From: Octopus vulgaris | Taxonomy: Eukaryota | Length of the DNA: 64,000 nucleotides | Assembly (NCBI GenBank): GCA_951406725.2 | Contig: OX597834.1 | Coordinates: 37,882,001 to 37,946,000, forward strand | Reading direction: 5' to 3' | Shown here: positions 1,031-61,820 of the stretch, one piece after another | Numbering within the stretch: position 1 is the stretch's first letter | Layout: each line of letters starts with the position of its first letter | The notes under the pieces: generated by a model | Told to the model about the DNA's origin: nothing | What the model saw: the letters and a program-made list of their open reading frames with translations, nothing else | Database searches by the model: none | Made by a program: the position numbers and the translations under genes

Positions 1031-1166
1031 CATTATTGTCATTATTATTATCATCATCATTATTATTATCATCATCATTATTATTATTATCATTATCATT
1101 ATTACTATTATTGTTATTATTGTTATTATTATTATTATGATGATGATGATGATTATTATTATTATT
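1..1166. repeat. (GAT)n/(GAG)n/(GGT)n/(TAT)n low-complexity tract
   Basis: Direct reading; source of the poly-M, poly-D and poly-I pseudo-ORFs. Confidence 0.95.
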
Positions 1167-1742
1167 GCAGTCCAGTCTGTGCAGTTATTGTTTAGCTCCA
1201 ATTCAACCATCACAGAACTGACCTACGACTGATGATGTTTTAGCCATGACCATCCCTCCAATTCTTTCACAGACATAATATATAAATGATTACATTATCC
1301 AAATATGACTTCCATTATTTAAGACATTTAGCCCTGATCCGAGGGTGATCTGGTTCTTTTTTCTAGCAGGTCATATAACCACATAATGGGGCTTCTTACT
1401 TTTGCAGTCGATGTTGTTTTTATTGTAGTTGCAACTGATATTTTAAGTATACAAGGAATTGGGTGTTGAAAAATTCCTGGTTTTGGGTAAAAGAAAATAC
1501 AGGCGGATCAGTTAATTATGGTTTTATTCAAATCAAGATTTGGCTGACGCTAACCAAGGAATCATGAAGTGGCACCTAATGTTGACTCTTTGAATGTTAA
1601 TTTTCTTTTGAAAATGTTTAATTCGCGTATATTCACATCAGAATAATTTTTTTTGCATGATGTAATAACTATTCATCAAGAAAAAATAACTCGTTTGAAA
1701 CAGCTGTAGTGAATGAACCAATATCCAACTTTGCTATTTGTT

Positions 1743-1798
<56 letters not shown>

Positions 1799-1802
<4 letters not shown>

Positions 1803-1987
1803 AGGGGGTGAAAGGAAATATAAGAGAATCGGTTAATTATGATTTTATTCAATATATTCCCTTTCAGATTCACATACTTATTTCAATGGTCCTTCAGTTT
1901 TTCTAAGCCCTGTAAAAGAACTCGCAAGATTGGGCCTTCATCCAGACCTTTCGTGACACCCTTAAAGCCAGGAACTTTTCAACACCC
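1799..1987 (-). mobile_element. Mariner-derived MITE, same family (partial copy also at about 1449-1531)
   Basis: Reverse complement of the 63386-63604 body, with TIR AAAGCCAGGAACTTTTCAACACCC. Confidence 0.7.
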
Positions 1988-2105
1988 AATTGGTAGTTTC
2001 TGTAGAATTTGCTGTTCCTGTTATTCTTTTTATAGTCGCAACGTTCCTGGAGCTTTTGTGGTTGCTGTAGTTTTTTATAGTCACTATTGTCGTTATTCTC
2101 TCTTA

Positions 2106-2311
2106 TACTCTTTTACGTGTTTCAGTCATTTGACTGCGGCCATGCTGGAGCACCGCCTTTTAGTCGAGCAAATTGACCCCAGGACTTATTGTTTGTAAGC
2201 CTAGTACTTATTCTATCGGTCTTTTTTGCCGAACCAGTAAGTTACGGAGCCATAAACACACCAACATCGGTTGTCAAGCGATGTAGGGGGGACAAACACA
2301 CACAAACACAC

Positions 2312-2372
<61 letters not shown>

Positions 2373-2552
2373 CATACAAACATATATACGACGGGATTCT
2401 TTCAGTCTCCGTCTACCAAATCCACTCGCAAGGCTTTGGTCGGCCCGAGGCTATAGTAGAAGACACTTATCCAAGGTGCCACACAGTGAGACTGAACCCG
2501 GAACCATGTGGTTAGTAAGCAACCTACTTACCACACAGCCACTCTTGCGCCT
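2106..2552 (-). mobile_element. tRNA-derived SINE family A, full length with internal microsatellite
   Basis: Head GGCGCAAGAGTGGCTGTGTGGTAAG..GGTTCAGTC (A- and B-box-like) and tail ..GCTCCAGCATGGCCGCAGTCAAATGACTGAAAC. Many copies in this window. Confidence 0.85.
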
Positions 2553-3222
2553 ATTATTGTATTTTTACAACTTCCTCTTATATTAGTTGTTGTTGTCATC
2601 GTCGCTTTTATTGTTGTCGCAGGTCAGATTCCCAATGTATGTGGTGGTGGTGATGGGTCGGAAAGGTGAGAACTATCGGAATTTCTCTACAGTTTCATCT
2701 TCGATCTGTTTTGTAACAACCATAGATTTCCTTTCGCTATTATTCTCCACTTTCCGCCCACCTTTTTGCAAACTCATTCTCTCTGAATATCTACCTTCCT
2801 GTCTGGGCATCACACCCATTCGAGATCTTTCTCTCCCCACCTTATGTATGTATCTATCTGTCTATTTATTCATTCCTTTATTTATTTATGAATCATGTAT
2901 CTCTCCATCTAACAGTCTATCTATCTATCAACCCATCCACCTTTCCATTCATATATCCATTTATTTTTTAATCTATCAATTTATCTATCTAACTATCTGT
3001 TTGTCTGCCTATCCATACCTCTAGTAATCTATCTAGTTCTATCTCTTTCTCTCTCTCTCTCTCCATATATATTTATACACACACACACACACTTACATAT
3101 AAGTATATATACACACAAATATATACCTGCCTATAATTTTTTTCTATCTACAAGTCTATTTGTCTCTCAACATATCTACTTATCAATCTTTCCATCTATC
3201 TATCGATCTCTCTATCATTCTG

Positions 3223-3298
<76 letters not shown>

Positions 3299-3309
3299 GT
3301 CTGTCTATC

Positions 3310-3340
<31 letters not shown>

Positions 3341-3346
3341 CTATCA

Positions 3347-3381
<35 letters not shown>

Positions 3382-3382
3382 A

Positions 3383-3413
<31 letters not shown>

Positions 3414-3757
3414 CATCTATCTCTTTGTCTGTCCACCCTCTGTCTGTTCGTCTGCCTTACCTATTCCTCTATCTACCTAACATCATCTCTGTCTATCAAT
3501 CCCAGTTCCTTTCCCCATTCACTCCAGTCGTCAGCTGACAGCCATATTTCACGATCGCCGTTGTTAATAATACTCCTTCTTCCCGGTGTTACAGTTGCTG
3601 TTGCTGATGTTAACGTCGTTATGCAGATGTCGCCAAGGTTGCTATTACAGCTGCTGTTGAGGTTAATGTCTTCTTACTCTGATAGTATTAATGCCGCTCA
3701 ATCCTCTGATGTTGTTTGTGTTGATGCCACTGCTGTAATTTATGATATTACTGTTGT

Positions 3758-3801
<44 letters not shown>

Positions 3802-4051
3802 TTGTTGTTGCTGTTGTTGTTGTTAGTACAAATAGTTTTGCTAGCGTTGCCGTTAATGTTAACGCCATCTCTATTGCAGTGTGCGAATCTAACAAACATA
3901 TATCCATACATACGTATGTATAAATGTGCTTGCCTCTGCGTGTGTGTGAGTGTGTATGTATATGTATGCATGCATCATGCATGTGTGTATATATGTATGT
4001 ATGTATGTATGTATGGAAGTATGTATATATATAAATAGACATATACATACG

Positions 4052-4085
<34 letters not shown>

Positions 4086-4122
4086 CATATATGTATATAT
4101 GAATGTATGGAAGTATGTATAT

Positions 4123-4181
<59 letters not shown>

Positions 4182-4333
4182 ATATGTATCTATTGAATAC
4201 ATATCATATAGTGTAATACATATATATACATATATACAAACATAGATATTGTGTATGTGTGTATGTATGTATGGTGTGTATGTGTTGACATATAAAGATA
4301 CACATCTATATATATATGTATATATATATATAT

Positions 4334-4367
<34 letters not shown>

Positions 4368-4480
4368 AAAACAGTATATTATATTGTATGCACACACGTA
4401 TATATATATATACGCCTTTATGTATGTATATGTATGCGTGCATACATATTTATATATATCTATACTCACACACATATATT

Positions 4481-4526
<46 letters not shown>

Positions 4527-5189
4527 CACACTCGCATGCCAAGTCAGGGATACAAACAGGGAGATAGAGAAGAGATGTAATGGCGAGTGCCTGTGTGTCA
4601 AAAGAAAGTGAGTATTGTCATATCTCTCCCTCCCTTTGCTGCTATAAGATATTTTCGTTTGGTCTTCAAACAGTTGAGACATTAAGAACAAAAAGACGAA
4701 ATCTCTGAGATAAGACATTTCTGAACACTACCAACAATGAAACAGAATACATCACGAAATATCAGGTATTGTATTTCTTGTCAGTGTGTTTGCGAGTGCG
4801 TACGTTTGTGTGTATGTGTGTGTGTGTGTGGTCTGGTCACTAGTTCAGCATGTCTACAGGGTAAATGTCGCATCTGATATCTCTGCACATGGAAATGTGT
4901 CAGCGAGAAGAATGCAAACTTTCAAAGCAAGTCTGCACACCTAACCTCTAATCACGTGTAAACAAAGGCTGCTGGCACCTGGTCGTTTAATTTCCTAAAA
5001 ATGGTGTACAATGTCCTCCTCAAATCACACTGTTCTGTCTTAAAAATAGGAAAAGGTCTTGTATTGTAGCCTGGGGTCAACCAATGCCTTGTGAGTGGAT
5101 TTAGTAGATGGAAACTGAAAGAAGCCTGTCATATATCTGTGTGTATGAGTGTAACAATTACATCATCCACTAATACACAAAAGCTGATA

Positions 5190-5643
<454 letters not shown>

Positions 5644-6221
5644 CTCTTTTCATTCCGTTCATTGTTTTAAATACGTCTATCTTTCATGAAGCGCCAAAAC
5701 GTTTCATCGCGTTTATATGCTTTAGCTACAGACAAAAACACCACCTCGGCTCCACTAGGCATTTGCATTGCGACTCATTATATTTCTCATAACGTCTGTT
5801 TTATCATGAAACATATATATTTACCAGTTAGAGTGATAAATTACTAAAAACTTCGCTATTCTTTTTCTAGGGTAGGGTCTTGATGAATTACATTTCTAAT
5901 ACTCTCACTAACTCCAAAATACAAATGAGAAATTCAGTGTCAAACACCATAGAGAAACATACTTTCAAAGATATTACCAACAATGAAACAAACACAGAAA
6001 ATATGTTCCATTCTTCTTTGTCTGCGATACAACAAATACCATTCTTTTAAAACATTTTTTAGAAATAAACAGCAGATTGTTTTTTCGGGCTTTTTTGCTT
6101 CTTCTTCTTAACAACGCTTTTTATTAATGTAAAATAATGTTTTGACAATTGAATTCAGTACAAGAATGAAAATTATTTCAGCCTTTCTATTACAAGTAAT
6201 TTCAAAAATATTATTATTATA

Positions 6222-6298
<77 letters not shown>

Positions 6299-6378
6299 GT
6301 ATGTTGTTGTTGTAATTATTATTATTGTTATTGTTATTATCATTATTATTAAGGCGGCAAACTGGCAGAATCGTTGTA

Positions 6379-6529
6379 GGCGCAGGAGTGGCTGTGTGAT
6401 AAGTAGCTTGCTTACCAACCACATGGTTCCGGGTTCAGTCCCACTGCGTGGCAACTTGGGTAGGTGTCTTCTACCGACCAAAGCCTTGTGAGTGGATTTG
6501 GTAAACGAAAACTGAAAGAAGCCCGACGT
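6379..6529 (+). mobile_element. SINE family A, 5' half
   Basis: GGCGCAGGAGTGGCTGTGTG..GAAAGAAGCCCGACG. Confidence 0.8.
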
Positions 6530-6878
6530 ATATATATATATATATATGGATAGTACCTCTCTAAGTATAGACCTGTGAGTCGGAGAGAAGGAACTAGAGA
6601 GGTCACTTACTCCTGGGGTTCCAGGGAGATCTCGGGCAGTGGGGTTCCTCGATTATCCCTAGAGGCCTTCCTGTATCAGAAGGGTCACATCTTTATCATC
6701 TTCCCGGCTACTTTTTTTTTTGTTTTTCATCTTTGTGTATGTCCCTTCTTTTTCAGTATACACCTTTCTATACTTACCTCTTTTTGTGTGTGTATCATTT
6801 CATATATGTAAACCATCACACTTTATGTCTGTCTTCGTATTGTCTCCCTTATCCTTCACCTTTGTGGCAAATAAATGA

Positions 6879-11984: not shown

Positions 11985-12470
11985 TAATAAATAAAATATA
12001 TGCATACATACATACATATCTGTACGTACCTACATCTACATGTATATATACATGCATATATAAATATATATACGTGAATACAGGACGCCACAATTAGACG
12101 TAAAAATAACCGAGAAACGAAAAACGAAAACGAAAAAGTAAAAACAAGCAGGGAACGGACCATTTTTTAAAACAACGAAAAAACAGGGTACAAGACAACC
12201 TACACAGGAAAAATCCCCTTCATCAGCTGTCCCTAGTTCAACTCCAGCGTGTTTCGAAGGTAGGACAGGACACGTCCTGTTGAACTAGTCCTTCCTGTGA
12301 AGGAATTAAATAAAAATCCTTCGCAGAGGGGCAAAAACAAGGAAAAAAATGTTTTTGACAAAAACAGGACGTAAAAACAATACAATTAAAACAAATACAA
12401 AATAAAAATACAATTACAAAAAAATACAGTACAAGAAGAAATAAAAACAGGACAGGAAAAAGGAATAAGG
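11985..12470 (-). mobile_element. Non-coding repeat family carrying the C-B-A hammerhead (copy 1)
   Basis: Colinear similarity to 56150-56560 and, in reverse complement, to 47955-48165. Flanked by (TA)n tracts. Confidence 0.75.
12215..12288 (-). ncRNA. Candidate hammerhead ribozyme with non-circularly-permuted (C-B-A) strand order, copy 1
   Basis: Minus strand reads CUAGUUCAAC agga CGUGUC^CUGUCC ua CCUUC GAAA CACG cugga GUUGAACUAG GGACAG CUGAUGA A GGGG. Helix I GGACAG/CUGUCC; helix II GGGG/CUUC; helix III ACACG/CGUGU; GUC cleavage triplet. Confidence 0.7.
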
Positions 12471-28417: not shown

Positions 28418-29315
28418 ATCGGGATGAATATGGGGATGGACAAATGTGCTGGGGTCATACTGAGGAGAGACAAAGTAATCATCACTGAAAACACTGCATT
28501 CAACGGAGACACGGAAATCAGAGAATTTGACCACAATCGCTCGTTCAAATGTCTAAGAAAAGACGAAAGAGCTGAAATACAACACAGAGAAATGACAGAC
28601 GAAATTAGGAGAGACTAGTACAGAACAGTCAGACTAACATTAAAAGCTGAGCTCAATGCTAAAAATAAGATAATAGGGATAAACACGCTGGGCATACCAG
28701 TCATAAATTACAGCTTCAATATGATAAACTGGAAGATCAGTGAATTGAGAAACTTATATAGGAAAACCAGGAAACTATTAACAGTATATCAAAGTCGCCA
28801 GAGAATATATCTACCCTGCTCAGAAGAAGACCGTGGTCTGATATAGATGGGGAACTACTATAAAATATGAACAGTTGGACTATAAAAGCACTTAGAAACA
28901 AAAAGTGAAAGATTACTGCATGTAATAAAGCAACACGAGAAAAAGAAAATGATGACCAAATACAAAACAGAAACAAACTATACTGATACACTGACCTCAA
29001 ATGACAACATAGCAGAAATGGTAAAAAAGATATACAACATGAAAACAGAACTACAACACATACTAAAGAAGAAATGAAGAGAAAAAATCACTCCATGGCC
29101 AATACCCTGCAATGCTTGACAGAGAAGTGAAGTTAAGTAAAAGCCTACAATGGCTCAAAAGTTCTGGACTAAAAGTTGAAATGGAAGAACTAATTTCTCG
29201 CTGCACAACACCACAAGTAACCATAAAAGCAAAATAATGAAAACAGGCTCTAACACTAAATGCAGAATGTAAGAGTTGACAACATCATCTCTAGCTGCCC
29301 AGTCCTTGCCAAATC

Positions 29316-29404
<89 letters not shown>

Positions 29405-29835
29405 ATTGGACACTTTGCAACAAGTATGGAAATGACAGAGCAAAAGATTGGTAAGACCACAAACCCGAAGGCATCATCGAAAATAAAAATGCAAAGATCC
29501 TATGGGATCCTGATTCAGTGCGACCATGAGACAGAGAATAGGAAGCCAGACACAGTCTTAACTGAGAAAGAAAACAAACTATGCTGGATCATAGATGCAG
29601 CATGCCCAGCTGACAACAAGGTATGCGATAAGGAACAAAAGTCGATAGATACGACAGGTTAGCTTGGGAAGTTAAGCAGTTGTGGTCAATGAAAAAGGTA
29701 GCAGTTGTATCAATAATTGTCGGAACCCTGGGAACATTGAGCAAAAATCTCGAGAAGTATGAGGAACAAATAGGGGCTGCAATAAGAGTGGAGCACTTTC
29801 AGAAAACAACACTGCTTGGAACAGCTCGAATACTC
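28418..29835 (+). pseudogene. Decayed R4/Dong-like non-LTR retrotransposon (RT C-terminus + restriction-like endonuclease)
   Basis: Frameshifted motifs IGMNMGMDKCA, ELNAKNKIIGINTLGIPVINYSF, LHGQY, NRKPDTVL..CWIIDAACP (PD..D endonuclease), VSIIVGTLG and QKTTLLGTARIL. Interrupted by (TA)n at about 29320-29400. Confidence 0.85.
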
Positions 29836-29899
29836 CTTTTTTTTTATTATTCCAAGTGCACCAATTATTTACGGTATTGCGCAGGCCTTCAATGCCACA

Positions 29900-31290
29900 T
29901 TTTCTCAATTTCAATTATTCTTCTGCAAACCTCCTACTTTCCATCGTGAGTGAAAATCATTTTTTTCGTTTCTTTCATGTTTTGCAACCATTTTCAGCCT
30001 CAAAATCATCTGCAGTTTTAAGGTATTGTTCGAATCCAATGGTTTATATTTTGCATAATAACTCAAACTGGATCATTTCTCTGCCTTGTCTTAGGAGAAA
30101 GAGGCGATCCACATCTACTTTTGGGTGATATAATTTATTACAGGTCAGAAGCTTCTTATGAGACTTATGATGCTGGAATTTATAGTTCTTTCGGTTTGTG
30201 ACGACATTAGATTTGTATCCCATACAGACAATGTATTTTAAGTTTGATATTGCTGAAAATAAATTTCAGGATATCCAACTTTTCCAAAATCTGTGGGTGG
30301 AAGACACTCTCAAACGCTTTTTGTTTTTATCAACTCAGGCAGTATTCAAACTTAAATGTTTTCATGGCGTGAACAGTTAATTAGAAGTTGGTCTTTGCAT
30401 CCGTAAGACTCATGACGTCAACCTTTCTGACGATCTTCGTCCATAAATTTCTTGGTTGTCTCAGTCAAAATTGAGGCGAGAATTTTGTCTGATGGGGAGA
30501 GGCAGGAGATGGGACGATAATATTTTGGAATATTTGTTTCTGTTGATTTTGGCAAGAAATATGCTATACTTTGTGCAAACCAAACCAGGAGTTTTTCCAG
30601 GGTTGTGCATAATTTCGTTATAACATCTTAACAGCATGTCATGGGTAGTTATTAGAGAAGATAACCAGAAGTTTGGCACTTTGTCAATGCAAGGAGATTT
30701 CCATTTGTTGGCTTTGTTTGGTACTAACTCAAGTTCTTCCATAGTTATGTCTTGCCAAGTCTGTCTTTCTAAAGTATTGAATATTTCTTCCATGCTTTTT
30801 ATCCATTCCGCATTCTTATACTGGGATATTTCTGTACTCCATACTGTCTTCTAAAATTCTTCAACCTCTTAAATTGAAGGAGGTCGCTTTATATGAATTG
30901 TCTGTGCCGCAATTAACTTGTAAAACCTTTTTGCGTCCGACAAACACCGTATGTTTTGCCGGTAAAATCCGTTTCATTTTTCGAATTTTCTGATTCTTTC
31001 AGCTGTCGTCTGTACTTTCAGTTGTCGTCTGTTTCGGGATCTCTTTGGTTGAAGGAGTATCATACACTGAAGTTACATTGTATTTTTGAATTACCTTCCG
31101 TCCTTTTCTTAACTTGATAGATTTCCTAGTATATATTTCATCCAAGATCGATATTTCTCCTCATCATCATTTCAATTTCTTTCTCAATTTTTATCTTCCG
31201 GGGTGAAAGTTTTTTCCTGCAGTTGTTGTGTCCTTTTCGCCTTTTCCTTGACACACATTTCCTTTTGGATATCGTCGCTACTGCATGTAT
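29900..31290 (-). pseudogene. Second decayed R4/Dong-like LINE fragment, internally deleted
   Basis: Minus-strand motifs WKSPCIDKVPNFWL (RT N-terminus) and RKLLTCNKLYHPKVDVDRL (post-RT region). Confidence 0.7.
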
Positions 31291-38235: not shown

Positions 38236-39384
38236 CTCTCTCTCTCACTCTCATATAGGAAGTATTAAAATTTTAATTAGAGGGATTTGCATTGCACCAA
38301 CGACTTCCTCTTTGCAGCAATGGTTACAGCACCAAAACAGGTAGAAACCGGTGTGGGGATATCCTTCATATGCCGACTGCGTAATGTGAAGTATTTCCCA
38401 TAGATGAATATTAATTTTTCATTGGACAGAGCCCCACCGAAGACAGTTCTAGTGACGACTGGCTCCATGTGGTATGTTATGAGCTTGAAGTTGACGTCCT
38501 CTCTCTCTCTCTCTCTCTCTCTGCTTACTCGACCTCTTCCCAGCTCTCTATAATCTCTCTCTCTCCTTCCAAACATGACTTCCCGGGCTCAATAATTCAC
38601 CTTCCAAACCATTGACTAAACCGGGCTCGTGCACCAGCTGCAGCTGCGACTCGCAAACGCTTGCCCCTCCAGATGTCAAGTCCGAAGCCAGAGACTGCTC
38701 TTGGTTAATGCCTGCTTCTATTATACGGCATCGTACTTCTTCAAAATGATTTTTAAAATCCCTTCAATTTTTGTTGCGTCTGAGAGTATTACAGTGACAG
38801 CATCAACGATATTAGGACAGTACTTTAAATTTTAATATGAACACTACAAATCAGCACTCCTGCTTGCACTGGTATGAACATCATCCAAAACGTAGAAATT
38901 TTCCTTCATATGCCGACTGCGTAATGTGAAGTATTTCCCATAGATGAATGTTTCATTTAACCACATTCGTTTAAAAGCTACTGCTGGACGATGTAGCAAA
39001 ATGGATGCGGGGCTAAAACTGGCTGTGCTTCAAGCAGCTACTAGTGTGTGATAGCTGACACAGACGAAATATTTACATTAATTTTTCATTGGACAGAGCC
39101 CCACCGAAGACAGTTCTAGTGACGACTGGCTCCATGTGGTATGTTATGAGCTTGAAGTTGACGTCGGTGGATTTGTGTGATATCTTACTATTTGTTGTAT
39201 CTCGACCGATGACAAGAGGCAGCCTCTTGGTGAATGGCTACATGGATAAGGAGCTCGCTTTGTATCCACGTGGCTTCGGGTTCAATACCACTGCACGACA
39301 CATTGAGCAAGTATTTTTACTATAGACTTGGGCCGACGAATGCCTTGTGAGCGAATTTGCAGACAAACTATGTGGAAGTCCGTC

Positions 39385-47954: not shown

Positions 47955-48161
47955 TTTTTTTCGTTGTGTTAATTGTCCTGTACTCCATTTTTTGTTGTTT
48001 TAAAAAAATGTCCAGTTCCTTTGGTTTGTGTCTATGTTTTCGTTTCTCTTTGTGTTCGACGTCCCTTTGGTGTCCTGTACTCATATATGCGTGTATATGT
48101 ACATGTAGAGGTAGGTACGTACATATATGTTTATATATATGCATATGTTTTATTTCATTTA

Positions 48162-48165
<4 letters not shown>
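47955..48165 (+). mobile_element. Same repeat family (copy 3, 5'-truncated just downstream of the HHR block)
   Basis: Reverse complement of about 56150-56352, ending in (TA)n. Confidence 0.75.
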
Positions 48166-48215
<50 letters not shown>

Positions 48216-55274: not shown

Positions 55275-56149
55275 TCTGTGTGTGTGTATATATATATATA
55301 ATGCACATACATACACACACACACACACAAACAAAACCACGCACACTCGCAGACGAGTGTGATGCATACGAAGGACACGATGCATCCTCGCACACGAAGG
55401 ATGTGATGCATATACACCATTTCTCATAATCTATATCATTTTTCACCTTTAATATCCCTCCTCACCTCTCCACCTCCACATCTCCACTTCTAACTGACTC
55501 CCTCCCGTCCCTCCCTCATTTACTTTTTCTGTTCCTTTCTGGGCCCCGTCCCCAGCCTCCACCACCCGCCCCCCGCCGCAGCCGTCAAATATGCCCTACC
55601 CCACCCCTTTATCTCTCCTCCTTACTTCCTCTCCCCTTGTTTCTCTTCTGGATCAGTTCCTTTCCCCCCGTCTAATTTCTCAACCATATCCCACTACTAA
55701 CAGTACATATACCCAACACACACACACAAACACACACACACACACACACACATACACACACGCACATACACACGCACACACAAACACGCGGTCACGTGCA
55801 CACACTCACACACCGACAGTGGCGCACGCAAACATTTATTTGCGTGAATGCGTGTGAAGGTAACATATGCGAGTGTGTGTGTATGTATGTATATTTATAT
55901 ATGTAGATATTTAATTAATTCATTAATAAGTACACTTTTGGGATGGTGGGGGAAGGCTGGTTTGCAATATACTGTAAGGTATATCTTCTTTTAATAAACA
56001 TATGAATTTTAGACTTCGCTGTATATAAGGTATATATATATATACTTTGATACTTTGATAGGTTTCGGCCATTATTGGCCCAGGCCATGTCTAACTTAAT
56101 AGCACCATATATATTATTTTGTTATATATATATATATATATATATATAA

Positions 56150-56750
56150 CAAAATAATAAATAAAACATATGCATATATACATACATATATGTACGTACC
56201 CACATCTATATGTATATATACATGCATATATAGGTACAGGACACCAAAAAAACGTCGAACACAATGAGAAACGAAAACATAAACACAAAACCAAGGAAAT
56301 GGACATTTTTCTTAAACAACGAAAAAATAGAGAACAAGACATACAACACAAGGAACATTCCCCTTCTTCAGCCGCCTCTGTTTTATCTACTCCACGTTTC
56401 GAAGGTAAAGGCGAGACACGACTTTGGTGAAACAGTCCTTCCCGCAAAAGCAAATTAAATAAAATTTGAGATTTTTTTGCGGAGGAGTAAAAATGGTAAC
56501 AAAAACAGGACAGTAAAAACAATACAATATATAAACAGTAAAAGACAGGACAAGGAGAATAACGGTAACACGAACATTGAGGGCGGTTAAGCCAGACCGA
56601 ATGAAAAAATATTTTGAACGCTTTGATAACGGCGACAGAGACAGGGAAAGCCGTCAACACTTGAAGGAAGCCGGGTCAGAAAGACAGTAGTGGCCTTCTT
56701 GTCGCGTGTCAGCGACGGGAGGGAGGAGGTACTCCTCCTCCTCCTTGGTA
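56150..56750 (-). mobile_element. Same repeat family (copy 2, longer)
   Basis: Shares ATGCATATA..GTACGTACC..CAGGAC..AAACGAAAAC..CATTTTT..AAACAACGAAAAA..CAAGACA and the HHR block with copy 1. The upper boundary is approximate. Confidence 0.75.
56360..56435 (-). ncRNA. Candidate hammerhead ribozyme with C-B-A strand order, copy 2
   Basis: Minus strand reads CUGUUU caccaaagu CGUGUC^UCGCCU uua CCUUC GAAA CGUG gaguagaua AAACAG AGGCGG CUGAAGA A GGGG. Helix I AGGCGG/UCGCCU covaries with copy 1. Confidence 0.65.
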
Positions 56751-56874
56751 CATCATCAAATTTCTCTTAATTTTACGGTTTGATATACAGCATAATTTGT
56801 GGGGTAAATTGACCTGGTAACTACCTGGATAATTTGTCCCTTTAAACTCATCGCGCGAGCGTGCGTGTTGTGTG

Positions 56875-57107: not shown

Positions 57108-57112
<5 letters not shown>

Positions 57113-57305
57113 AGTGAAAAAACTACAGAAGGCTTGTTTTATAAGGTTAAAGAATATATTTGAGTCATTATGTCAGAAGAATGTTATAAAATTTTATCAT
57201 ACAGTAACATAGATGAAAAAATTTTATAACATTCTTCTAACATAATGACTCAAATATATTCTTTAACCTTATAAAACAAGCCTTCTGTAGTTTTTTCACT
57301 CTTTA
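57108..57305. repeat. Long near-perfect inverted repeat (arms about 93 bp, spacer about 12 bp)
   Basis: TAAAGAGTGAAAAAACTACAGAAGG..TTTTATCAT / ATGAAAAAATTTT..CCTTCTGTAGTTTTTTCACTCTTTA. Confidence 0.95.
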
Positions 57306-58857: not shown

Positions 58858-61565
58858 TGTGTGTTTGGAGAAGGGGAGAGAGACAAAAAGAGAAAAGGGA
58901 AAATAAAAATAATAATAATAAAAATAAAAAATTAAAAAATTAAAAAAATAAAATAAAATAAAAACAAAAAATAAAAAATAAAATAAAAAAATATAAAGAA
59001 TAAATAAAATATATAAAGAATAAAAAATAAAAAAATAAAAATAAAAATAAAAATAAGGGAGGAAGTGGAGAAGAAAAAATATTTTTGTGTGTTGATATTT
59101 ATACCAACACATATATATACACACACACACAGACTTATACATAAAATATTTGAAAAAACCTTTTTATCGGTTCAAAATGAACAACCAAATTATACCATCT
59201 TGAAAGTTGTATGTCATAGGAAAGTTAAAATTAAAGTGACAATTAAAGGGTAAAGATGGAAGTGAATTATAAAGATAATAATATAATATGATGTATATAA
59301 CAGGCAATACACACATCTACACACACACAGATTTTTCCTTCAATGTATGTTGAGTAAAGTTTCAGCCATTTAATTTGGGGGAGAACTTAGCTATGAAATG
59401 TTTTTCCATATTCCTCCTGAAGGGGGTGTCATTCTTCGGACACTTGTAGAAGGGAAATATCTTAAATTTTCCTTCTCCACATGTAGCTAGGTGTGTGCTT
59501 AGTGGTATTTTGCGTAGTTCTTCCTGCCGAATATGTTGTCGGTGGATCCTGGCTCGCTGGCACAAAGAATTACCAGTTTCTCCTACGTAATTCTCCTTGC
59601 ATGTGGGGCAGGTTATGCAGTATATGACGTTCTGCGTCTTGCAGTTCATATCTGCATTTACTTTGAATATGACACCATTTTTAAATCTTATCTCTCTGTT
59701 GCTCTCTATGTATTTGTAGGTGGGGTTGCTGCAGGTCCCACATCTACCATCTCCGCACTCTTTTGCAAAGAATTCCGTTTTAGTTTCTGAAGAGAATTTC
59801 GCTCTTGTTAGGTGTTTTTTTTGGTTTTTGTCCTGTCGTCTACTGTTTTTTATGCTATATTTGTTTAATATGTTTTTCATTTTGGGGCTCTGTAAGGCTA
59901 TTGGTAGGTTTGAATGTATGGTTTGGAAGATGTTGGTAACTCCAGGGTTGTGTGTGTTTATAAAAGGGATAGTGTTTTCTTTGTTTTTTGTTTTGGGTGT
60001 CCTGAGTTGTGTGATGTCTAGTTTTAATGCTCTTGTGATTCCATTTTCTATTAGTTTAAGGGGGTATTTTTGCTCTAGGAGGAAGCTTTTGAGTTCATCT
60101 AGTCTTATTAATCGTATTTGTGAATCAGTTACTATGCTACATATTCGTCGTGCCATACTATATGGGATGTTTCTTTTTGTGTGGGATGGGTGGCAGGAGT
60201 GGAAATTTAAGTATTGATGTGTGTCAGTTTTTTTGTAGCGGATGTCTGTTGTGACGATGGAGTTGTGTATTTTGATGTTGATGTCTAGGAAGGGAAGTTC
60301 GTTGTGGCTGGTATCTATTGTGAAATTGATAGATGGGTGCAGCGTATTGAGGATGTTGTGGAATGTTTGTAGGTCCTCTTCTGATCTGTTCCAAAAGATG
60401 AAACAGTCATCGAGGTAGCGTTTCCACTTTTTCTTGATGTCTTCTCTGAAGTCGTGTTCGAAGACTTTCCCTATTTCGTCATATAGTTTTTTCTCCAGGA
60501 AGCCCATCACTAGGTTGGCATATGAAGGTGCGAATTTTGTACCCATAGCCGTGCCTTTTATCTGTCGGTATGTCTTGTTGTTGAATGAGAATGTGTTTTC
60601 TTCTAGTATTAGTTGGGTGGCTTGGGTGATAAAGTTTGTCTTGAAGCGTTCATCTATAAGTTCTCTGTATTTTTCTATTGATTGTTTTATAGCTTCTAGA
60701 CCTAGGGTGTGTGGTATGTTTGTGTATAGATTTGTGACATCAAAGCTTGCAAGTATGGTGTTTTTCGGGACTGTATTTGGAATGTGTGTGAGGAAGTCTA
60801 TGTCATCCCTTATGTAGCTTGGAATCTGTGGGCATAGAGGTTTGAGGAGTATATCTATGAAGTGGCTTAGTTGTTGTGTTGGTGCCTGGGGTCCTGCCAC
60901 TATTGGTCTCATCGTGAGGTCTGCAGGTCTTTGTACTCTTATGTAGTGGTTCCTCTGTTCCTTTATGGCTCTCTGTATTTCCGAGCTTTTATGAATTTTA
61001 GGTAATCCATAAAAGTTGCTTTCTTTGGTTTGTGAGTTGCATAGATAATCTTCCTCCTTATCTGTAAAGGAGTCCTGATATTCATTGACTAAAGTTCTAA
61101 TTTTTCTTATTGTTGTTTTCTCCGGTGGTGTTGGTTCCTCTTTGTAATATGTCTGGTTGTTCAGTAACTCTAGTATCTTTTCTTTGTAGTAATCTGTGTC
61201 CATAATTACTATTGCTCCACCTTTGTCAGCTTCTTTTATAACGATTGATTTGTCATTTTTCAGTTTTTGTAGGGCTTGCTTTTCTTCTCTGCGGAGATTC
61301 TGTTTGCATTTGTGTGTGTGAAGAGGGAATTTGGATATTGTTTCTATGTACGTGTCAAGGTGTTTGTCACTTCCCTTGTAAGGGGTGAAGTGGGATTTTT
61401 TTCTTATGATTGAGTTATCTTCTGTTTCTTTATTTTCAAAGAATTCCATAAGGCGGAGGTAGCGGCTGAAGTTATCTATGTCAGTTTTTAGTTCTATGAG
61501 GTTTGGAGTGGGTGTAGGTGTAAATTTGAGGCCTTTTAGTAGTAGGTTCATTTCATATTCGTCAT
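58600..61565 (-). mobile_element. Penelope-like element, approximate extent including putative 3' UTR
   Basis: The ORF above plus a downstream T-rich non-coding tail, bounded by (TG)n/(CA)n tracts. The 3' boundary is a guess. Confidence 0.6.
59362..61551 (-). CDS. Penelope-like retroelement polyprotein (reverse transcriptase + GIY-YIG endonuclease), Neptune-type
   Basis: Open 729-aa frame with PLE N-terminal motifs LLKGLKFTPTP and KEADKGG. RT motifs: FYGLPKIHK, RPIV, SFDVTNLYTNI, GTAMGTKFAPSYANL, RYLDD, LPFLDI. Cys linker CGDGRCGTC. GIY-YIG domain NVIYCITCPTCKENYVGET..R..H..H, ending PKLN. The frame continues upstream of the ATG (..HDEYE-M) into a (CA)n tract, so the true start is uncertain. 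Confidence 0.95.
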   Translation of the reverse strand: MNLLLKGLKFTPTPTPNLIELKTDIDNFSRYLRLMEFFENKETEDNSIIRKKSHFTPYKGSDKHLDTYIETISKFPLHTHKCKQNLRREEKQALQKLKNDKSIVIKEADKGGAIVIMDTDYYKEKILELLNNQTYYKEEPTPPEKTTIRKIRTLVNEYQDSFTDKEEDYLCNSQTKESNFYGLPKIHKSSEIQRAIKEQRNHYIRVQRPADLTMRPIVAGPQAPTQQLSHFIDILLKPLCPQIPSYIRDDIDFLTHIPNTVPKNTILASFDVTNLYTNIPHTLGLEAIKQSIEKYRELIDERFKTNFITQATQLILEENTFSFNNKTYRQIKGTAMGTKFAPSYANLVMGFLEKKLYDEIGKVFEHDFREDIKKKWKRYLDDCFIFWNRSEEDLQTFHNILNTLHPSINFTIDTSHNELPFLDINIKIHNSIVTTDIRYKKTDTHQYLNFHSCHPSHTKRNIPYSMARRICSIVTDSQIRLIRLDELKSFLLEQKYPLKLIENGITRALKLDITQLRTPKTKNKENTIPFINTHNPGVTNIFQTIHSNLPIALQSPKMKNILNKYSIKNSRRQDKNQKKHLTRAKFSSETKTEFFAKECGDGRCGTCSNPTYKYIESNREIRFKNGVIFKVNADMNCKTQNVIYCITCPTCKENYVGETGNSLCQRARIHRQHIRQEELRKIPLSTHLATCGEGKFKIFPFYKCPKNDTPFRRNMEKHFIAKFSPKLNG

Positions 61566-61767
61566 GTGTGTGTGTACTTATCTACGTGTGCGCTCAGTAA
61601 CGAAACACGGAGGTGCGTTACGTTATTAGTTTAAGGGTAACATTTCTCGCTATAATAACTCTACAAATATTCGTATAAATGATGATTTATTCGGGGCCGC
61701 TGCATAGAGTGATGCAATAGATACAAACAGTCGAATTCTAAAGCGTTATATAAAGGAAATTACCAAG

Positions 61768-61820
61768 ACTCCTACTTCAGAAATTGTTTGTTTCGAGGAA
61801 TGTGTCTCTCATCAGGCAGT
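61768..61820 (-). ncRNA. Possible hammerhead motif upstream of the PLE ORF
   Basis: Minus strand reads ACUGC CUGAUGA GAG acacauuc CUC GAAA C aaacaauuucugaa GUA^ GGAGU. Helix I has 4 of 5 pairs and helix III is weak. Confidence 0.4.

Follow-up and report, generated by a model that had tools for sequence, protein, structure and literature searches.

A dispersed repeat in the DNA of Octopus vulgaris carries, near its 3′ end, what we predict to be a hammerhead ribozyme of new connectivity. We give a probability of about 70% to this reading, which derives from sequence analysis and takes the repeat to be the remnant of a Penelope-like retroelement, most likely of the Naiad type. The window analysed here is a stretch of 64,000 nucleotides (nt) of animal DNA rich in microsatellites, and all positions refer to it. 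Somewhat more cautiously, and on the same kind of evidence, we propose that the topology falls outside the six block orders considered possible and that, together with type CSG, it probably represents the missing ribozymes of Naiads across ctenophores, cnidarians, acanthocephalans, nematodes, arthropods and molluscs. Hammerheads of non-circular order would in that case be common across animal genomes instead of metatranscriptome rarities, and they may work as tandem-sensing dimers.

Hammerheads of type SGC (HRIMA-1) and type CSG have been described from metatranscriptomes and metagenomes and cleave in vitro (Eckert 2023, PMC10085705). According to the accessible parts of that paper, such RNAs were not found in genomes of known organisms, bar one weak GCS candidate, and type CSG consists of two metagenomic sequences only. 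The S-G-C order is therefore already known from this work, and the new parts are the split core and the animal host. Non-circularly permuted hammerheads have been described this once, in a scheme that places the helix II strand one or two bases after CUGANGA at most and treats the two as inseparable, a premise that fails if the repeat RNA cleaves. In that case, non-circular hammerheads would be present at high copy in animal genomes, the reported absence of hammerheads from Naiads would be a search artefact, and the question of why Penelope-like elements keep ribozymes would be reopened. A junction that tolerates two helices at A9/G10.1 would also offer a new insertion point for engineered switches.

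A hammerhead core in non-circular order

On the minus strand, the hammerhead core is complete in both copies of the motif, with its parts in a non-circular order: first the cleavage site, then GAAA, then CUGANGA (Table 1). Read as blocks, S (helix III strand, GUC, helix I strand) is followed by G (helix II strand, GAAA, helix III strand) and then by C (helix I strand, CUGANGA). An earlier note on this DNA had picked out CGUGUC (56420–56415), CCUUCGAAAC (56405–56396) and CUGAAGA-AGGGG (56371–56360) on the minus strand, together with a second copy about 44 kb off; all were found again, copy 1 lying 44.1 kb away at 12274–12215 with U at N7. The cleavage position predicted there, 56415/56414, is placed correctly.

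The catalytic positions are all intact in both copies: CUGANGA (C3–A9), GAAA (G12–A15.1) and the NUH triplet. Helix I (6/6 pairs) and helix III (5/5 pairs) flank the core in each copy, with A15.1–U16.1, and the outer or interaction helix forms 10/10 pairs in copy 1 and 8/10 in copy 2. This 10-bp helix starts one base past GAAGG, is continuous with helix I, and is joined to helix III on both strands to make one arm. The link between helices I and II measures 2 and 3 nt in the two copies, for a type-SGC limit of ≤8 nt. With majority alleles, the loop that parts helix III from the interaction helix (56421–56425 and 56388–56392, minus strand) resembles a bulged-G motif (AGUA/GAA), which would stiffen the arm.

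Table 1 Positions of the repeat copies and of the parts of the predicted ribozyme in the window
Feature	Positions	Strand	Remarks
P0 5′ strand CUCCU (CCCCU in copy 1)	56483..56487	minus	pairs with 56364–56360
Hairpin PH	56442..56482	minus	8/8 basal pairs; lies with P0 between A9 and G10.1
Helix II 5′ strand GAAGG (G10.1 = 56441)	56437..56441	minus	5/5 Watson–Crick pairs with CCUUC in both copies
Interaction (outer) helix, 5′ strand	56426..56435	minus	pairing with 56378..56387
Block S: helix III 3′ strand, GUC, helix I 3′ strand	56409..56420	minus	predicted cut 56415/56414
Block G: helix II 3′ strand CCUUC, GAAA (G12 = 56400), helix III 5′ strand	56393..56405	minus	
Interaction (outer) helix, 3′ strand	56378..56387	minus	runs straight on into helix I
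Helix I 5′ strand AGGCGG and core CUGAAGA (C3 = 56371, A9 = 56365)	56365..56377	minus	
P0 3′ strand AGGGG	56360..56364	minus	helix II strand of the earlier note
Copy 1 ribozyme motif	12215..12331	minus	same six helices, junction without unpaired base; predicted cut 12269/12268
Copy 2 of repeat	56155..~56580	minus	3′ end abuts (TA)n; blastn and contig depth
Copy 1 of repeat	11985..~12510	minus	5′ end abuts (TA)n
Copy 3 of repeat, 3′ part only	47960..48208	plus	starts just past ribozyme, ends in (TA)n
(TA)n tract	56123..56147		at 3′ end of copy 2
Rarer 5′ extension of copy 2 element	56581..56850	minus	low but non-zero depth in 3/4 runs

Across the six helices, 36 of the 39 compared pairs form in both copies, and copy 1 forms 38. 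Nine pairs are changed on both sides between the copies, eight of which still pair; three of the double-sided changes fall in hairpin PH. Helix I (AGGCGG/UCGCCU versus GGACAG/CUGUCC) shows three double-sided changes, one one-sided change and two identical pairs, and it is paired throughout, as had been claimed. The accompanying claim of an outer stem that changes yet pairs holds for its first six pairs, with two double-sided changes, but not for the next four, in which copy 2 has two mismatches. The two G-U pairs said to preserve helix III are present; they are nevertheless weak evidence for the fold, because 20 of the 24 substitutions in helices are transitions and other copies often have G-C at both sites.

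We compared the motif with several controls against chance. A descriptor of the S-G-C order requiring at least 4 bp in helices I and III, drafted after the copies had been seen, found exactly two sites in the window, both of them repeat copies, against a mean of 0.03 sites in 300 local Markov controls, of which one had two or more. A loose form of the full descriptor passed in 4/300 controls. The S-G-C descriptor found no site in 41 fetched loci (6 viral, 35 metagenome) whose match to the bare motifs is fortuitous; helix I reached at least 4 pairs in none of the 35 metagenome matches (all ≤3), and none of the viral or metagenome matches was a relative, the helices being absent and the sequences dissimilar by blastn. 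When 24 substitutions were placed at random with the observed transition rate, at least 37 of the 39 pairs were kept in 14 of 200,000 trials. These descriptor controls and the compensation test support what the earlier note had argued, selection on the RNA fold rather than chance motifs; as the copies descend from one repeat family, selection acted on the source lineages and not on this locus.

Motifs arisen by chance and inherited with a neutral repeat would fit the shared ancestry of the copies, and the motif is indeed no more conserved between them (85/117 positions alike) than its flanks (164/199). Such an origin is very improbable, however, given the descriptor and substitution controls, the shuffles described below, the short helix I of every chance metagenome match, and the recurrence of the wiring in Naiads with unrelated sequence. 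Neither 76-nt window had a significant folding z-score (−0.23 and −0.43). In local scans no Rfam hammerhead family (types I–III) matched either copy up to E = 10, which is expected because the block order is non-circular, and a scan of the whole window returned only microsatellite-driven miRNA matches among the best 150 of 449.

Helix II and a proposed split between A9 and G10.1

The earlier note had assigned the GGGG that follows the core to helix II. In our model, CCUUC most likely pairs with the upstream GAAGG instead: the GAAGG/CCUUC duplex has five Watson–Crick pairs and −5.7 kcal/mol in both copies, compared with two G-C and two G-U pairs, −3.1 kcal/mol and the need for an extra A after A9 in GGGG/CUUC. 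The 76-nt extent given for the motif was likewise incomplete, since the motif reaches about 52 nt further 5′.

The upstream pairings fit together without slack. AGGGG begins right after A9 and pairs, as helix P0, with the upstream CYCCU (56487–56483, minus strand); the 5′ strand of P0 (P0a) ends exactly where hairpin PH starts, and PH ends exactly at the helix II G. The path from A9 through P0 and PH to G10.1 would therefore be a four-way junction without an unpaired base that splits A9 from G10.1. No natural hammerhead that we know to be active carries helices between A9 and G10.1. An unbroken block C, in which CUGANGA is followed by the helix II strand within 1–2 nt, can be formed with four weak pairs and is outcompeted in the preferred model.

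The simpler structure of the earlier note, a plain 76-nt type-SGC hammerhead with GGGG/CUUC as helix II and with upstream pairings that are incidental or belong to an off state, is improbable as an alternative to the split core. Both copies do pass a straight SGC test with four helix II pairs (G-C, G-U, G-U, C-G), and published SGC RNAs carry one extra base past A9, according to the accessible parts of PMC10085705; the duplex is, however, the weaker of the two, and pairing of the GGGG type is impossible, judged by eye, in 7/8 distinct Naiad look-alikes. The identity of AGGGG in both copies, which would also suit the plain structure, is explained by its P0 partner, a CCCCU found in copy 1 and at about 98% of summed depth.

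Nested folding, a method that cannot predict pseudoknots, recovers neither helix II nor helix III in either copy. It gives pair probabilities of 0.93 (copy 2) and 0.88 (copy 1) for PH, and of 0.85 (copy 1) and 0.04 (copy 2) for P0. Competing pairings are available: CCUUC can be captured by G8-A9-AGG (−6.2 kcal/mol), and PH and helix II of copy 1 face competition from a downstream helix (−16.3 kcal/mol). An enclosing helix between 12299–12292 and the flank past AGGGG was strong in copy 1 only (−16.3 versus −5.3 kcal/mol) and was dropped as a conserved part.

When the 75 nt upstream were shuffled, helix II, PH and P0 appeared together without slack in 0/20,000 shuffles for copy 2 and 11/20,000 for copy 1. 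With GAAGG held fixed, PH and P0 alone appeared in 681/20,000 and 1,790/20,000 shuffles, respectively, a frequency at which the window alone supports the junction only moderately. As with the S-G-C descriptor, these tests were designed after the copies had been seen.

With type SGC the repeat shares the S-G-C order, a helix I–II link of 2–3 nt, two core pseudoknots and an interaction helix that lies one base past helix II and is continuous with helix I (PMC10085705, accessible parts). In type SGC, CUGANGA runs straight into helix II, whereas the helix II strand of the repeat lies upstream with P0 and PH between; type SGC also comes from metatranscriptome RNAs, in contrast to a high-copy repeat in animal DNA. 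The Eckert search pattern, CUGAUGAG or CUGAUGAUG, is not matched by the repeat copies, which read CUGANGAAG, so that descriptor would miss the repeat. Type CSG has an equal circular strand order, and moving its 5′ part to the 3′ end at A9/G10.1 yields the layout of the repeat, although in the accessible parts of the same source its block C is whole and lacks the P0/PH junction.

The PK hammerhead shows that the core tolerates a helix II rebuilt from distant strands and an extra helix (Zhan 2024, PMC11300833, accessible parts). Unlike in the repeat, G10.1-C11.1 comes directly after A9 there, with a pseudoknot and helix IV in place of helix II, pistol-like connectivity and no four-way junction, and by its different connectivity the repeat falls outside this group. 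Canonical Penelope-like elements and animal retrozymes carry type I hammerheads, which resemble the predicted ribozyme as end-repeat hammerheads of a Penelope-like element for which dimer action and precursor processing have been proposed; these hammerheads differ in their C-G-S order, their minimal helix III and, in retrozymes, their tandem arrays (PMC4209133; bioRxiv 10.64898/2026.07.22.740005; accessible parts of both). Animal non-LTR retrozymes are recognised by tandem type I units, whereas the repeat occurs as single dispersed copies with a non-type-I order. A literature search that took in text rather than figures, and few subscription journals, found type SGC in Eckert 2023 alone; it turned up neither a paper that assigns Naiads a fold nor a hammerhead in which helices stand between A9 and G10.1. 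No A9/G10.1 helix junction appears in the accessible parts of Perreault 2011, Forgia 2023, PMC13725137 and DasGupta 2021.

The repeat family and the 3′ ends of Naiads

The repeat is about 430 bp long, T-rich in the sense of the ribozyme, and present in three dispersed copies in the window. Copies 1 and 2 are about 70–73% alike (blastn of 56155–56528 against 11985–12386, 69.9% over 415 columns), and copy 3, which is 5′-truncated, has 84.8% identity to 56107–56355. A (TA)n tract adjoins three of the six copy ends, among them those on the 3′ side of copies 2 and 3. In copy 2, the final 13 nt recur inverted across its (TA)n tract (56112–56159), which recalls the inverted ends of Penelope-like insertions. 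The short repeats of the window presumably resemble octopus SINEs.

Contigs from 4 of 24 listed public runs (organism labels A, B, B and C) were placed on 56150–56850 at 80% likeness, and 2,647, 6,056, 6,860 and 1,085 contigs matched per run. The family is abundant, given these 1,085–6,860 contigs per run, where summed contig depth does not equal copy number. Summed depth is high over 56234–56581, with a dip at the variable helices; 5′ of 56581 it drops steeply, in line with 5′ truncation. Six-frame translation of the rarer 5′ extension showed stops and no domain recognisable by eye; the extension includes a purine/pyrimidine palindrome at 56720–56745, a potential strong hairpin. Either side of the predicted cut site, summed depth is about equal in the four runs, which suggests that most insertions do not come from a cut 3′ piece. 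The run with 1,085 contigs, which is possibly RNA, covers 22/30 bins; DNA or read-through could also be its source, and we counted it neither way.

Variants among other copies were available from the same four runs as unlinked positions. Among the 40 of 87 that were listed, none fell in the catalytic core and 10 fell inside the six helices, 5 of these improving the pairing: U56486C in P0 (about 98% of depth in all four runs), 56384 in the outer stem (68–94%), 56372 in helix I (50–72%), and 56394 (25–88%) and 56418 (24–57%) in helix III. Positions 56373 (27–39%) and 56413 (14–35%) form a couple that turns a G-C pair of helix I into A-U. The variant at 56378 (5–53% of depth) breaks the first outer pair, barring a change in an unlisted partner; of the remaining two, one turns a Watson–Crick pair into G-U and one remains a mismatch. 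At 56486, 56427, 56425 and 56384, copy 2 itself has the minority allele, and the two G-U pairs in its helix III lie at CpG-type positions. For these reasons copy 2 is probably a partly decayed, weakened relic, and copy 1 is the better-preserved ribozyme motif.

Naiads are Penelope-like elements with (TA)n targets, 5′ truncation and a T-rich 3′ end that occur in octopuses and squid (Craig 2021, PMC8557442). In the accessible parts of that paper they are reported to lack canonical hammerheads and no fold is proposed, but unexplained ‘HHR_core’ and ‘HHR_half_core’ motifs that fit no descriptor are recorded in their 3′ UTRs; Naiads are also said to form partial tandems, and those of cephalopods to be long inactive. 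We read by eye, rather than by computation, the last 420–480 nt (more for three) of 34 of the 54 consensus sequences in the supplement. The split wiring could be traced in 10 of the 34 ends (Obim, Ovul, Esco, Dst-4, Bfor, Chem-3, Movir-2, Amil, Anas and Plae), which amount to eight distinct sequences from five phyla: ctenophores, cnidarians, an acanthocephalan, an ostracod and cephalopods. Five further ends are clean type CSG with long interaction helices (Nbra-2, Nbra-3, Hcon, Hpol and Smim). The resulting 15/34 is not an unbiased rate, because the sample was drawn partly from families flagged by the authors.

The helix II strands of the split-wired ends are unrelated in sequence (for example, GACACC/GGUGUC, GACGCC/GGCGUC, GGCUCC/GGAGCC and GGCCCC/GGGGCC). 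By eye, the partner nonetheless always lies upstream, right after the hairpin and 1–2 nt before the interaction helix, and the bases after CUGANGA (such as CCCC, ACAGUU or CCUCU) pair with the strand that precedes the hairpin. In seven of the eight distinct sequences these bases cannot pair with the strand before GAAA, whereas the upstream strand can form helix II in all eight, in one with a mismatch. Cut triplets, again by eye, are all NUH (GUC, GUA, UUC, AUC and AUA). The match has imperfections, namely the helix II mismatch in Esco, a P0 mismatch in Ovul and Obim, a 2-bp helix I in Bfor, and 1–2 nt of slack at the junction in three of the split-wired Naiads.

Core-like motifs in other arrangements were seen by eye in another five of the 34 ends (Lpol, Ppla, Dst-1, Dst-2 and Sdum); in Naiad_Lpol the blocks stand in S-G-C order, helix I has 8 bp and a long insert parts S from G. 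No core was seen in the last 420–480 nt of the remaining 14 (Omin, Dst-3, Chem-1, Chem-2, Parc, Tama, CGi, Mgal, Adux, Movir-1, Skow-1, Pfla-1, Scon and Mmer). The repeat is like Naiads in its (TA)n targets, truncation and T-rich 3′ end and in a wiring found at 10/34 ends. It is unlike them in that no Naiad ORF (N-terminal GIY-YIG, C-terminal RT) lies beside any copy in the 64-kb window, where copies are short or truncated, and in having no detected match to the octopus Naiad consensus: five short repeat motifs gave 0 matches in the accessible consensus supplement of PMC8557442, where line breaks can hide a match, and a 13-nt octopus Naiad motif does not occur in the window above chance. With neither ORF nor sequence match, the repeat is Naiad-like by layout, target and position rather than a demonstrated member.

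Proposed action, carrier and neighbouring elements

In the proposed structure the order from 5′ to 3′ would be P0a, PH, the helix II strand (G10.1), 1 nt, the interaction helix, block S with its GUC cut, 2–3 nt, block G with GAAA, the interaction helix partner, the helix I strand, CUGANGA and the 3′ strand of P0 (P0b). This layout would correspond to the type-SGC/CSG strand circle opened at A9/G10.1, with P0 and PH bridging the gap as a perfect four-way junction that keeps A9 beside G10.1, and with the interaction helix tying the far ends of helices I and II as in type SGC. The permutation may have come about through element boundaries shifting in tandem 3′ repeats. By analogy with solved hammerheads (PMC11300833, accessible parts), the RNA would be cut after C17, with G12 as base and the G8 2′-OH as acid, leaving a 5′-OH and a 2′,3′-cyclic phosphate. 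Its likely role would be to trim tandem or read-through precursors to single units, a function put forward for other Penelope-like elements as well, and because most genomic copies span the cut site, the template for insertion would mostly be uncut RNA.

The core could assemble within one copy or between two. Since the interaction helix and helix III form one arm, which is long and almost uninterrupted in some Naiads, a core formed between two copies, in tandem or in trans, is a possible, if less likely, variant that keeps the same helices and needs a tandem precursor. In this arrangement one copy would dock its loop with blocks S and G into the open ends (helix II strand, helix I strand and CUGANGA) of the other. 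Arms of 15–22 bp with 1–2-nt links in Naiad-4_Dst and Naiad_Amil are, by a rough estimate of helix geometry, too long for a monomer to fold back; dimers have been proposed for many Penelope-like hammerheads (Cervera and de la Pena 2014, accessible parts), and Naiads form partial tandems. In the repeat, by contrast, both strands of the arm have an internal loop of 4–5 nt and the interaction helix measures 10 bp, so that the arm might fold back; the copies in the window are single.

It is unlikely that the fold is real but a relic or a handle for the reverse transcriptase, no longer or never primarily a cutter here. The off-majority positions of copy 2 and its misfolding in nested prediction would be in keeping with this, as would the long inactivity ascribed to cephalopod Naiads, the lack of a depth step at the cut site, and the anole Penelope-like element, whose hammerhead required protein for cleavage, a step that insertion in vitro could do without (Frangieh 2024, accessible parts). 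Favouring a cutting ribozyme, the catalytic positions are kept in both copies and in five phyla while the helices turn over, and the triplets are only NUH.

As to the carrier, we prefer a Naiad-type element; more tentatively, the repeat could be a non-coding, retrozyme-like unit mobilised by another (TA)n-targeting Penelope-like family. One such family could be represented at 59362–61581 (minus strand), where a 739-codon ORF with RT (PF00078) followed by GIY-YIG (PF01541) marks a Penelope-like element 2.8 kb away in the same orientation. A short element of this kind would agree with the steep fall in depth 5′ of 56581, with a 5′ extension that has no ORF, and with the lack of a motif match to the published Naiad, Chlamys or Hydra consensus sequences in the accessible supplement, line breaks again being able to hide one. 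However, animal retrozymes are tandem and type I, the wiring of the repeat matches Naiad ends, and the neighbouring ORF comes with a canonical-order core of its own, with unrelated repeats standing between it and copy 2. For the last two reasons we rejected this ORF as the direct parent of the repeat.

The linker CX4CX2C before the nuclease suggests that the neighbouring element is of the Neptune type, judging from the accessible parts of PMC8557442. Upstream of its ORF, at 61816–61770 (minus strand), lies a minimal hammerhead core in canonical order, with CUGAUGA, a 3-bp helix II, GAAAC and GUA; it has one helix I mismatch and no Rfam match in a local scan. Together with the SGC-like repeat, this core gives the window two hammerhead topologies. 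Broken frames at 29273–30850 resemble the remains of a non-LTR retrotransposon, two pieces of which gave no Pfam match. A 199-bp inverted repeat with 94% arm identity (57108–57305) adjoins a (TA)n tract, and an exact direct repeat of 89 bp occurs at 38410–38498 and 39077–39165.
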